From Pyrodictium delaneyi (GTDB lineage Archaea > Thermoproteota > Thermoprotei_A > Sulfolobales > Pyrodictiaceae), in assembly GCF_001412615.1 (NCBI RefSeq), contig NZ_CP013011.1, forward strand, positions 270,001 to 302,000: a stretch of DNA of 32,000 nt, written 5' to 3'. The notes beneath the pieces are model-generated. The model was not told the origin of the DNA, ran no database searches, and saw only the letters and a program-made list of their open reading frames with translations. This document shows positions 20,808-24,394 of the stretch, piece after piece. A program made the translations under genes and the position numbers. Every line of letters begins with the position of its first letter. The stretch's first letter is position 1.

Positions 20808-22382
20808 TTGTCGACGCCAACCCTACTAGACATAGCAGGCATAGCAGGTGAGCTGCTACGCATAGCCTCTACCAGCCAGCCCCGCCCAGCCAGCATAGGA
20901 GGTGCAGGTGTAGGCGAGGAGGACCGCGAGGAGGAAGCCGAGGGCAAGGTAGTATGGTCCCGGCTCCCCGAGCCAGACCTAGTAGGCCAGCGGCTGAACT
21001 CGCTCATCCATCCTCTCCCCGAGCCGCCGAGCCGGCTAGAAGCCTACGGGCTGGATGGTAGCAGCCAGCGGCTCGAGGCAGCAACACTCTTCATGGGTGT
21101 ATACAGCGTCGCCATCTCTCACGTATCCAACATAATCGTGGTTGGCTCCTACCCCGACATTGGTGTCCTCCCTCGCCTCGAGCTAGGCCAGGAACCCGTG
21201 ATAAGCCTAGGGCTCGGCTACACTGCTACCCCCTCCTTCGGCAGACTTGTAGCCGACTCTCCACTAGTGGATCCCCGGATCTTCGCCTCGCTTCTACCCG
21301 GGTGTAGCGGTGGAAATGGGCAGCCCCCCTACTGCCGCGTGATCGCTGAGCTAGACTACTGGAACGGCTTCAACCGGCAGACCATGCTTGACGAGAACCG
21401 GGTATGGCTCGAGAACCGGGCGCTAAAGTGGCTGCTAAGCTGGGTCCCCAGCGGCTCCCTAGTCTCCGTAGACGGGCCTATCTTCAGCACACCGGGGCTC
21501 TTTGTACAAGTCGCTCGCAGCCTAAGCCTAGCTGGACTCTCACCATACACCGCGTTGAAGGCCTATTACGCGCTAAGCTACCTTGTTAATGTGCTCGACC
21601 GGGGCAAGCTGATAGAGGAGGCGCTGATACGCGGTATAAGGCTAATAGGTATCGTAAAGCGGCTTGAGAGAAGCCGCTTCCTCGCCTCGGCCTTGATGGC
21701 CGATAAAGAGTGGAGGAAGAGGGTAGAGGCTGCTGGGTTCTACGCTTCCAGAGACGCCCAGCTTGTAGAGATGCTCGTCCGCGCCTACGGGCCCAGGGGC
21801 TGGCTAGGCGGCTACCAGGCCCCCGCGGCTATAGGGCCCATCTTGACGGTGCTTAACCTAGGCGGCGTGGCTGCTTCTATCCGAGAGCTAGCTGGTCTAA
21901 AGAATAGCAAGGACAACAAGCTCGACGCCTACCAGCCAGCTATACGCGGCGGACGCAACCTCGCAGATGTGCTGGAGCTCCGCGGCCTTGGAAGGGTTTA
22001 TGCCCAGAAGATGCTAGTTAAGAGGAGCTACTACCTCTACGTTCCCTCGCCCCTCCACGGCAGGATCCTGCTGCGAGTCGAGATACCCGTCGTGATGCAG
22101 AGCGAGTATGGCGTCACCATAGACGGTCGTGGTAGCATAGTCTTCGACAAGTGGAGGCTACACGACATGATCGAGGACGATCTCAAGCTGCTCGCAGGAC
22201 TAGTAGAGCTCATGGGCTATCCTGACGCCGCCCAGGTGCCACTCCCCATAACGCTAGCCGACCACATTGCACGCCGCGTCTCCAAGCACAGTGCTCGTGT
22301 GCTCTACAATACCCTCCGCCACGCTGTGGGCTTCAGCTACGATACACACCTATCGATGGCCGAGCAGGGGGCTGCCAGGTGA
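20808..22382 (+). CDS. NurA-like (RNase H-fold) nuclease, enlarged paralogue
   Basis: It shows a NurA-type motif series: YGLDGSS, LVSVDGPIF, IGIVKRLERS and C-terminal GYP...PITLADHIARR. It uses a TTG start. Its stop overlaps the next gene's start (GTGATG at 22379-22384). Confidence 0.55.
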   Translation: MSTPTLLDIAGIAGELLRIASTSQPRPASIGGAGVGEEDREEEAEGKVVWSRLPEPDLVGQRLNSLIHPLPEPPSRLEAYGLDGSSQRLEAATLFMGVYSVAISHVSNIIVVGSYPDIGVLPRLELGQEPVISLGLGYTATPSFGRLVADSPLVDPRIFASLLPGCSGGNGQPPYCRVIAELDYWNGFNRQTMLDENRVWLENRALKWLLSWVPSGSLVSVDGPIFSTPGLFVQVARSLSLAGLSPYTALKAYYALSYLVNVLDRGKLIEEALIRGIRLIGIVKRLERSRFLASALMADKEWRKRVEAAGFYASRDAQLVEMLVRAYGPRGWLGGYQAPAAIGPILTVLNLGGVAASIRELAGLKNSKDNKLDAYQPAIRGGRNLADVLELRGLGRVYAQKMLVKRSYYLYVPSPLHGRILLRVEIPVVMQSEYGVTIDGRGSIVFDKWRLHDMIEDDLKLLAGLVELMGYPDAAQVPLPITLADHIARRVSKHSARVLYNTLRHAVGFSYDTHLSMAEQGAAR

Positions 22383-24394
22383 TGAGCAGCGGGGCCGAAG
22401 GCGCGAGCTTTGAGAGGATGGTGAGCGAGCGCCGCCGCATAGTCCAGCGCTATGAGGAGATGGTAGAGGCTGCGGAGAGGCTCGCAAGGCTCCTCGCTGC
22501 CGAGCTGGGGGTGGAGACGCTACAGCAGTATGGCTGGCTTGTAGGCCGCGTATCCGCGTCCCGGGATATAGGCTCCGACCTGGTCCCCGTGGATATGGCG
22601 CCGGAGGCCTGGATAGGGCTAGCCCATAGCCATCCTGAGGTCTTCTCGCCGGGCTACTTCTACGCTATAGTTGACCCGAAGACTGCGAGTATAGTGCTCG
22701 GCGAGGTGGCGGAATCTACGCGCTCCAGCATACCCGGGGTGCTCGGGGCGCACGAGCCGCTCACCAGTATACCGCTCGCCAAGCCCAGCCCAGTAACAGT
22801 AGCCGGCAACGTTGTCAGCATAAGGTTGTACGTGAGACCAGTGCTAGCAGTCCACCTCGGCAGAGACGGGTTCGAGAAAGCATCGAGGGCCCGGAGCCTG
22901 GAAGAGATAACCCAGCTACTAGCCGGAGCGGAGAAGCTTGCACCAGCCTTCCCCCTCGACCCGGGAAGCCCCGTCGCTATACCACATCCACGGGTACTCT
23001 CAGCCCTCATAGCTCCAAAGGGCGACGTCGTGCTGGGAGCGCTAGCGATAATGGACCAGCCATACCTCGCAGCCGGCTCCCCGGTGCCAGTATCCCTCCC
23101 CTGGAGCGTGATGGTGAAGCACGTCCTCGTGACCGGGACAACGGGGAGCGGTAAGACGAGCCTTGTAAAGAACGTGCTCTACAGTGTTTCGAAGACGAGC
23201 CGGGGCAGCGTACACATAGTCGTGCTCGACGCCAACCAGGACTACGTCGCCGGGCTCTTCCCGGGCTACATTCCCGCGTCCCTCGTGGACGCGAAGAGAG
23301 CTGGCATACTAAGGCTCTACGGAGTAGGGGCCAAGCCCGGGGAGCCGGTGAAGGGGCCTGCACTCCGGGGCATCGTAGCCATACCCTGCCCTGGCGACCA
23401 CTGTAGCCCCAGAAACGAGGCAGAATACTACGCCAAGACATTAGCCGGGATAGCCAGAGCCATGTACAGCCGCACCAAGGGCGAGTGCAGGCTCACAGAC
23501 AGCCCCAAGCTCCTAGACACGGGGATCCAAGACGTCTACGAGGCCCGGTACGCCGTGGACTGCGGCGGCGAGGAGACAGTAAGCGTGTACATCGCGCCCA
23601 GGAGCATAAAGCTGAAGGATCCAAAGCAGCTAGCAGAGATAGACCCCTACATGACGGAGCGCGCCCGCGAAGTACTCCCAGCGATAGTGGACTCTCTGAG
23701 CTGCCGCAGCCCACACCCCGCCCAGCTCGCCCACTGCATAGAGCGCAGGATACAAGAGGCTAAGCGCTACGCGCCCGAGGCGACGCTACAGCACCTACTC
23801 CGCCGGCTACGAGTCCTCGCAAACACCGGCGTGATAAACACGGCAGCACCGGGGATAGACTACAGCGAGCTAGCAAAGGCGATGAGGAGCCTCGCCGTGG
23901 ACACACTAATGCTCGACCTAGGCTACGCTGCAGCCAGAGCCCAGAGCGACCCCACAGCCGTCAAGGTGCTACTAGGCTACCAGCTCCTCCGCAGCCTAGC
24001 ATCAGCCGCAGAGAAGGGAGAAAGCCCCGGTAAGATACTCCTAGTAGTCGACGAGGCCCACCTATTCTTCCCCAGGGGCGGCGGCGAATACGCCGAAATG
24101 CTCCGGAGAACCCTCGAGCGCCTAGCAAGGCTAGGCAGGAGCCGCGGAATATCCCTACTACTATCCACCCACCGGGAGAGCGACCTCAGCCCCCTCGTAG
24201 TCACACTAGCCAACACCAAGATATACATGAGGACAGACCGTAAGACTGCAGAAGAGCTACAGCTACCCACCGAGTACCGCAAACGACTACCATTCTACGC
24301 CGACTACGCCGCAGTACTCTCAAGCTATGCAGTCCACGGAGGCTACCTAGGCCTAGTAAGCGCACCAGCAACAATAGGCCACAGAACAGCATAA
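22379..24394 (+). CDS. HerA/FtsK-superfamily (DUF87-like) ATPase with N-terminal HAS-barrel-like domain
   Basis: It has an N-terminal barrel-like pattern (LVGRVSASRD...GYFYAIVD...IVLGEVAES), Walker A VTGTTGSGKTS and Walker B ILLVVDEAHLFF. The HerA-like distal motif LLLSTHRESDLSPLVVTLANTKIYMRT is also present. Confidence 0.75.
   Translation: MMSSGAEGASFERMVSERRRIVQRYEEMVEAAERLARLLAAELGVETLQQYGWLVGRVSASRDIGSDLVPVDMAPEAWIGLAHSHPEVFSPGYFYAIVDPKTASIVLGEVAESTRSSIPGVLGAHEPLTSIPLAKPSPVTVAGNVVSIRLYVRPVLAVHLGRDGFEKASRARSLEEITQLLAGAEKLAPAFPLDPGSPVAIPHPRVLSALIAPKGDVVLGALAIMDQPYLAAGSPVPVSLPWSVMVKHVLVTGTTGSGKTSLVKNVLYSVSKTSRGSVHIVVLDANQDYVAGLFPGYIPASLVDAKRAGILRLYGVGAKPGEPVKGPALRGIVAIPCPGDHCSPRNEAEYYAKTLAGIARAMYSRTKGECRLTDSPKLLDTGIQDVYEARYAVDCGGEETVSVYIAPRSIKLKDPKQLAEIDPYMTERAREVLPAIVDSLSCRSPHPAQLAHCIERRIQEAKRYAPEATLQHLLRRLRVLANTGVINTAAPGIDYSELAKAMRSLAVDTLMLDLGYAAARAQSDPTAVKVLLGYQLLRSLASAAEKGESPGKILLVVDEAHLFFPRGGGEYAEMLRRTLERLARLGRSRGISLLLSTHRESDLSPLVVTLANTKIYMRTDRKTAEELQLPTEYRKRLPFYADYAAVLSSYAVHGGYLGLVSAPATIGHRTA

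Follow-up and report, generated by a model that had tools for sequence, protein, structure and literature searches.

What supplies the DNA from which archaeal CRISPR-Cas systems make new spacers, and how is sampling of the cell's own chromosome avoided? RecBCD and AddAB supply prespacer DNA for CRISPR adaptation in bacteria; to our knowledge, archaea have neither. Two overlapping genes of Pyrodictium delaneyi, encoding a NurA-like nuclease and a HerA-like ATPase, bear on both questions. They lie in a 32,000-nucleotide stretch of the chromosome (contig NZ_CP013011.1, positions 270,001 to 302,000), hereafter the window. The pair is a deeply diverged paralogue that serves as an accessory of one type I-A CRISPR lineage in the Pyrodictiaceae, and is not a recombination machine. 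We lean towards a reading in which a NurA2-HerA6 complex shreds DNA ends in the exclusive service of type I-A CRISPR, its most likely task being to provide Csa1/Cas4-Cas1-Cas2 with prespacer DNA. CRISPR-associated NurA-HerA is already known as a class; what is new is its integration into the adaptation operon and its partner gene with a tRNA-guanine transglycosylase (TGT) fold.

The gene pair and its descent

20808..22382, + strand: nurA, the 'long' CRISPR-linked paralogue; 524 residues; Pfam NurA (PF09376) 28.8 bits, cut-off 21
22379..24394, + strand: herA, hexameric ATPase/translocase family; 671 residues; Pfam DUF87 and HerA_C

Both open reading frames (ORFs) are present with a 4-nt overlap, as the initial annotation had described. 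The junction reads ...AGGTGATGAGC..., with the NurA stop codon TGA at 22380-22382 and two candidate starts for herA, GTG at 22379 (4-nt overlap with nurA) or ATG at 22382 (1-nt overlap); the public gene call for HerA is 670 residues. The order nurA then herA, abutting or overlapping, recurs in every relative examined, and the overlap suggests that the two genes may be translationally coupled. Because intact homologues of NurA and HerA, at 30-89% identity, occur in about 20 clusters, both are real genes and not chance ORFs.

The initial annotation had noted that the pair lacked Mre11-Rad50 and, from its features together, had proposed a specialised machine distinct from the end-resection complex. 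Neither mre11 nor rad50 is present in the 32-kb window, where the immediate neighbours of the pair are a TGT-like gene and cas3''. A genome-wide search of the complete 2.02-Mb chromosome found a canonical operon of herA (522 residues), mre11 (400 residues) and rad50 (916 residues) at 1115287-1120853, along with three further loci:

genome 1685707-1686684: nurA, unlinked, 325 residues
genome 1973170-1975955: further NurA/HerA pair
genome 894655-897531: further NurA/HerA pair

With the canonical genes and two further pairs present, the window pair is a fourth, extra copy. One of the two further pairs is divergent and the other co-directional, and the genome also holds several additional HerA/FtsK-like ORFs of 662-769 residues. 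On the model NF040937 (HerA_Thermprot) the window HerA scores 27.6 bits versus 436 bits for the canonical copy, and in a HerA tree it joins a 'long HerA' clade (support 100/99) that includes neither canonical HerA nor the two additional pairs of this genome. Judged by these comparisons, the window HerA is of separate descent from canonical HerA and is not its orthologue. The proposal was thus right to set a paralogue pair apart from the end-resection operon, and it had missed the CRISPR context.

The motifs that had been read in HerA were all recovered (GTTGSGKTS at residue 253, VVDEAH at 556, THRESD at 597 and ANTKIYMR at 611). Across 28 sequences, GTTGSGKT (K259), VVDEAH (D558, E559) and ARLGRSRG (R584, R587, R589) are invariant. 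Pfam matches exceed their cut-offs for DUF87 (38.3 bits, cut-off 23.2) and HerA_C (24.8 bits, cut-off 22); the Pfam HAS-barrel profile gave no match to this protein. An hhalign comparison with canonical HerA gave 97.6%. An AlphaFold2 (AF2) model built from 28 homologues (predicted local distance difference test score, pLDDT, 87.4; predicted template modelling score, pTM, 0.87) has the N-terminal beta-barrel and the RecA-like core with helical insertion of the HerA fold. The top 50 Foldseek matches to this model were all HerA chains (E 6e-19 to 1e-14, probability 1.0, target TM-score 0.40-0.62), and the matches include Deinococcus HerA, Thermococcus HerA-NurA, Sulfolobus 4D2I, Sir2-HerA and DUF4297-HerA.

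A long interval between the Walker motifs had been taken as a sign of an inserted domain. From Walker A K259 to Walker B D558 there are 299 residues, compared with about 192 in canonical HerA and 224 and 243 in the other two paralogues of the same genome; in the AF2 model the insert comprises an additional beta-rich piece (about residues 368-412) and additional helices. It is real, and has no alignment to canonical HerA. It is not a local novelty, being a trait of a clade spread across the order: a gap of 300-370 residues in all 21 long-HerA clade members rules out an insert unique to the window herA.

The partner protein belongs to the NurA family, judged by its Pfam match, motifs and context. 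The match spans positions 86-253 of the 254-position NurA profile, which is also matched by 18 of the 19 family members (best E 2.2e-19). The expected motifs are all in place (GLDGSS at residue 81, VSVDGPIF at 219, IVKRLERS at 282, LADHIARR at 483). Eleven residues are invariant among 19 sequences of 20-75% identity (D83, E196, R198, E202, D222, K284, R285, D316, R423, E425 and D485). Eight of them (D83, E196, R198, E202, D222, K284, R285 and D485) fall in the acidic and basic motifs GxDGS, DExR..E, DGP and VKR and at the C-terminal D, and from the order of the motifs these are likely equivalents of the catalytic residues of solved NurAs. The protein owes its additional 110-200 residues to three internal insertions between motifs. 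The acidic N-terminal sequence GEEDREEEAEGK is found at residue 36 as reported, and the region had been put forward as a distinguishing feature. It proved ordinary for NurA paralogues: the three remaining NurAs of the genome have motif I at residues 71, 91 and 83 and carry 12-14 Asp and Glu in their first 75 residues, as here, and this equal length and charge rules out a special extension.

The type I-A locus and its relatives

A type I-A CRISPR-Cas locus surrounds the nurA-herA pair, in the order cas6, array, tgt, nurA, herA, cas3''-cas3'-cas8a-cas5a-cas7-csa5, csa3, csa1-cas1, array, the last elements lying beyond the window:

14986..15864, + strand: cas6; Pfam CRISPR_Cas6 29.8 bits
16178..19752, + strand: CRISPR array 1; 54 repeats GCATAACTCAAAAGAGAATTGTAAG, spacers 36-49 nt
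19768..20763, - strand: short TGT-fold (DpdA-like) gene; Pfam TGT 24.4 bits, slightly below its cut-off of 26.3
20764..20807, no strand: divergent tgt/nurA intergenic region, a putative promoter region; 44 bp; CCTTATATC ... GGTAATACCCGGGTTC
24651..25496, - strand: cas3'' (HD nuclease), convergent with herA; TIGR01596 54.7 bits
25493..27232, - strand: cas3' helicase; TIGR01587 178 bits
27250..28431, - strand: cas8a; PADLOC Cas8a (CAS-I-A) 332 bits
28407..29234, - strand: cas5a; TIGR01874
29338..30402, - strand: cas7/csa2; TIGR02583 262.9 bits
30428..30754, - strand: csa5; TIGR01878 25.1 bits, below the cut-off of 53.35, the call being supported by cassette position
31132..31806, + strand: csa3 (CARF-HTH regulator); TIGR01884 52.6 bits, just below the cut-off of 60.2
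genome 304228-306061, beyond the window: csa1 and cas1
genome 307984-311338, beyond the window: CRISPR array 2; 50 repeats

We surveyed 351 genomes of the class, 28 of them from the family, together with additional metagenomic loci. Full-length orthologues of the window NurA are restricted to 7 of the 28 family genomes, and a search of 1.84 billion representative proteins yields only 19 clusters that match NurA at E <1e-30. CRISPR linkage is constant among the Pyrodictiaceae-type loci (11/11) and holds for 11 of the 14 loci of the window's subclade. In seven of these 11 linked loci the pair is joined directly to, or lies inside, the csa1-cas1-cas2-cas4 adaptation operon, in varied arrangements; the loci compare as follows.

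L114/L046: csa1-cas1-nurA-herA-array-cas2-cas4
L047, L049: nurA-herA-csa1-cas1-(cas2)-(cas4)
L116: csa1-cas1-tgt/nurA-herA-(cas2)-cas4-csa3-csa5...cas3'' (interference cassette)
L110, L112: cas4-cas2-cas1-csa1/nurA-herA-tgt-cas6
L048: tgt/nurA-herA-x-csa1-cas1
L044, Pyrofollis: cas3''-array-herA-nurA/tgt...csa1-array
L045, Hyperthermus: array-herA-nurA-csa3 fragments
L043, P. abyssi: array...herA-nurA/tgt...cas6

Gene arrangement therefore differs from locus to locus while the CRISPR link persists. The pair is also tied to a particular set of cas genes, being present in 5/5 genomes of the family whose I-A system is of this lineage (Cas7 identity 68% or more) and in 0/4 genomes with more distant Cas7 variants. 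With its genes set between cas1 and cas2/cas4, a NurA-HerA pair offers a direct candidate for the missing archaeal supplier of prespacers.

Two relatives have lost an intact nurA. In P. abyssi (G271; L043:9292-10800) about 90 bp (residues 330-359) lies on the other strand, with an in-frame TGA as the result; the tgt/nurA intergenic region of 44 bp is deleted, so that the starts abut, and herA is intact and 87% identical. No close type I-A cas7 is present in that genome, and the locus looks like one in decay. In Hyperthermus butylicus (G266; L045:9147-10669) nurA is split over two reading frames with residues ~297-377 missing, beside an intact herA, so that NurA has been lost twice independently. 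An MNT/HEPN pair (nucleotidyltransferase / HepT-like) lies directly downstream of tgt in P. abyssi (L043:11785-12640), and a similar pair occurs in L112 (14399-15160).

The tgt/nurA intergenic region of the window (20764-20807) has CCTTATATC and GGTA(A/T)TAC..CCGGGTTC in common with that of Pyrofollis japonicus (L044:11714-11778), despite the NurAs of the two being only 34% identical. These common motifs are probably a crossed pair of TATA-type promoters, or else a site for a regulator. The closest CARF gene to the pair is csa3, 6.7 kb off, and there is none within the tgt-nurA-herA trio.

Base composition varies along the locus: G+C is 48-51% across cas3''-cas7 (24651-30402), 60% in the trio and 62-66% in cas6, csa3 and csa1, against a genome value of 53.9%. 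We dropped G+C as a sign of a separate origin of the trio, since cas6, csa3 and csa1 are equally high and the odd part is the interference cassette. No such step at the interference cassette is found in the relatives; its confinement to the window locus suggests that cas3''-cas7 was exchanged in this lineage. Elsewhere in the window, a low-G+C stretch (9000-12000, 46-54%) separates housekeeping genes from ABC-transporter genes. Elsewhere in the genome, a third TGT-fold gene (375-residue frame, 65 bits; 1356436-1357173) lies ~18 kb from a second csa1-like/cas1 pair (1337085-1338868).

Function of the pair and of its TGT-like partner

If the two proteins assemble as in the HerA-NurA complexes of known structure, a NurA dimer would cap a HerA hexamer, and the complex would thread linear or broken double-stranded DNA, driven by ATP hydrolysis, and digest it from the end. 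Ends of invader DNA would in this way be cut into fragments from which Csa1/Cas4 and Cas1-Cas2 could make new spacers, and the complex may have a second role in completing the destruction of Cas3-nicked DNA.

Several observations weigh against this proposal. The long-HerA clade consists of two subclades: one (subclade i) includes the Pyrodictiaceae and the genome G089 and is CRISPR/TGT-linked, and the other (subclade ii) belongs to several neighbouring families, has conserved synteny and is nearly universal in two of them. Within 10 kb of subclade-ii loci there is neither a cas gene nor an array, and three genomes have such a locus beside canonical herA. CRISPR linkage is consequently not a property of the whole long-HerA family. 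Within the window's own subclade, the TGT-linked loci outside the Pyrodictiaceae (G089, G184 and G185) have no cas genes on their contigs, two of which are only 6-7 kb long. Related genomes are, moreover, non-independent samples, and a part in adaptation and one in interference cannot be told apart from gene neighbourhood. As for the nuclease itself, its AF2 model from a 7-sequence alignment is poor (pLDDT 59.8; <50 at residues 1-148 and 471-524), and Foldseek with this model returned no match at E <0.1; a profile search of PDB sequences with NurA likewise returned no solved-structure match.

G089 carries both subclades, with the subclade-ii long HerA on another contig, which makes the two distinct paralogues. 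In the subclade-ii loci L057, L058 and L059 (family f6), the chromosomal neighbourhood is conserved, and the long nurA-herA is followed by a gene of ~391-399 residues and then by canonical herA.

The translation of the TGT-like gene beside the pair contains a visible VDSGG catalytic Asp motif and a CxCxxC...H zinc motif, and a normal archaeal TGT (arcTGT) is encoded elsewhere in the genome. Orthologues are found in 7 of the 351 genomes, adjoining a NurA-like gene in all seven, and in three more metagenomic loci (L110, L112 and L116). Overall the gene is present in 10 of 14 subclade loci and was never found without the pair. Its placement varies, either divergent upstream of nurA or co-directional downstream of herA, and a position that shifts while the linkage is kept suggests that the linkage itself has been selected for. 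The TGT-like protein of G089 (L050:7251-8696) is 481 residues long and fused to DUF6884, a YaaA/DpdC-like DNA-binding fold; the 20 kb examined around it holds no cas gene or array. DUF6884 has been related to YaaA by Pfam curators (PMC11701544), and YaaA is the family of DpdC, a component of a 7-deazaguanine DNA-modification system (PMC12839542), so that the fusion points to DNA, not tRNA, as the substrate. By analogy with DpdA, the TGT-like enzyme probably acts on DNA, somehow tuning NurA-HerA. In the literature searched, we found no description of CRISPR loci in which NurA-HerA is joined by a TGT-fold gene; only the unrelated BREX-related capture (BRC) system came up. A TGT-fold partner that is strictly dependent on the pair offers a possible link of DNA base exchange to CRISPR.

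A rival reading is a self-contained, modification-dependent defence module, in which the TGT-like enzyme, in the manner of DpdA, would place a mark of the 7-deazaguanine type on host DNA, NurA-HerA would destroy incoming DNA that lacks it, and CRISPR would merely share the defence island. The invariable company of the TGT-like gene and the pair, its persistence through changes of position, the DUF6884 fusion, the trios on contigs free of cas genes in G089, G184 and G185, the MNT-HEPN pair adjoining the P. abyssi trio and the precedent for HerA with TGT in BRC systems (PMC12839542) are all in keeping with such a module. We nevertheless consider it unlikely, as four of the 14 loci lack the TGT gene and still have nurA-herA in the adaptation operon, the pair co-occurs with one I-A lineage, and the window encodes neither DpdB nor DpdC and has a TGT gene scoring below the Pfam cut-off. 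Were the pair only a defence-island neighbour, the locus would still be a compact three-gene candidate defence system of a hyperthermophile.

It is quite unlikely, in our estimate, that the pair is instead a helper of interference, loading on the break made by Cascade/Cas3 and degrading the invader processively with no part in spacer uptake. Such a role would suit the adjacency of the pair to cas3'' in the window, L044 and L049, and the activity of Thermococcus HerA-NurA, which degrades the two strands of duplex DNA from any end and for which an antiviral role has been suggested (Uda 2026, PMC12977600). It fits poorly with the seven of 11 CRISPR-linked loci in which the immediate neighbours are csa1, cas1, cas2 or cas4, not cas3, and with the position of the pair between cas1 and cas2/cas4 in L114 and L116.

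We hold it highly improbable that this is a plain housekeeping paralogue for recombination or repair, placed beside CRISPR by accident: the near-universal, syntenic sister subclade, sometimes beside canonical herA, and the several NurA/HerA pairs of this genome would agree with it, but the pair is patchy within the family, its CRISPR linkage has outlasted many rearrangements, NurA has been inactivated twice with HerA intact, and G089 holds both subclades.

Returning to the supply of prespacers, the TGT-like partner allows a more specific version of that role. In E. coli, Chi sites act in RecBCD-fed adaptation. The TGT-like enzyme might write a 7-deazaguanine-type mark in host DNA that gates NurA-HerA, such that shredding and delivery to Csa1/Cas4-Cas1-Cas2 are confined to foreign DNA, which is unmarked. 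We rate this as very unlikely; if true, it would amount to a DNA-modification-based filter of self from non-self inside a CRISPR adaptation module, a type I-A counterpart of Chi sites.

Comparison with known systems

The closest precedents are the Cas NurA/HerA proteins. Clusters of the form nurA-csm6-herA, associated with CRISPR, were described in 2012 from Pyrobaculum and other Thermoproteales, with a proposed role in adaptation (Bernick 2012, PMC3396285), 'Cas HerA/NurA' were later listed as accessories of types I and III in 14 cases (Vestergaard 2014, PMC3973734), and they correspond to the type III coevolved clusters 57/58 (Shah 2019, PMC6546367), which are PADLOC models PDLC01055/PDLC01056. 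Csa3a turns on herA and nurA in Sulfolobus along with the adaptation genes of type I-A (PMC5587795). The window pair resembles these proteins in being one of several pairs in its genome, set beside CRISPR arrays and cas genes, and PDLC01055 ('HerA, Type III coevolved') is the best HerA model for the whole long-HerA clade; it gives 108 bits for the window HerA and 146-156 bits for subclade ii, scores for which PADLOC provides no cut-offs. PDLC01056, the CRISPR-coevolved NurA model, is matched in this genome only by the window NurA, and weakly (18.7 bits, E 2e-4), as expected of a distant relative. Unlike the Pyrobaculum form, the window nurA and herA overlap, with no csm6/CARF gene between them, and the pair has a TGT-fold partner; its linkage is with type I-A, above all with csa1-cas1-cas2-cas4, and not with type III.

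With canonical HerA-NurA (PDB 4D2I, 9X1L/9X1M; Blackwood 2012, PMC3326311; PMC12977600) the window pair has in common the HerA fold (Foldseek E about 1e-17 to 1e-19), the Walker A, Walker B and arginine motifs, the NurA acidic motifs and the adjacency of the genes. It differs in its separate clade, in the absence of mre11/rad50 and in the order nurA then herA. The window HerA is ~150 residues longer than the canonical protein, with a long N-terminal helix (residues 5-39) and ~100 more residues between Walker A and B, and has the sensor motif STHR in place of SQRP; the window NurA is ~200 residues longer through its three insertions.

A TGT-fold enzyme beside DNA-handling ATPases or nucleases is also found in the Dpd system (DpdA, DpdB, DpdC; PMC10164549) and in BRC (PMC12839542), and the TGT of one relative of the window locus is fused to a YaaA/DpdC-like domain. 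The ATPase here, in contrast, is a NurA-coupled HerA in a CRISPR-Cas locus. The window has no ParB-like (DpdB) or DUF328 (DpdC) gene, which sets it outside the Dpd systems, and none of the BRC partners PglZ, DUF6079 (BrxC-like), STAND NTPase or DUF4007 occurs in the window or at the loci of relatives. Sir2-HerA/Nezha and DUF4297-HerA (PDB 8SUB, 8J4U, 8ZIQ, 9C1M) have the HerA fold and, of the solved structures, match best in sequence (57 bits); they differ in that the effector here is NurA, and HerA identity is only 12-15%. Missing partner genes rule out membership of the Sir2-HerA, DUF4297-HerA, Dnd/Ssp and BRC systems alike.

The likeness to RecBCD/AddAB would be one of function: as proposed for the window pair, each is a processive helicase-nuclease that works at DNA ends and feeds Cas1-Cas2. 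The protein families are unrelated, and here the motor and nuclease are encoded inside the cas operon itself.

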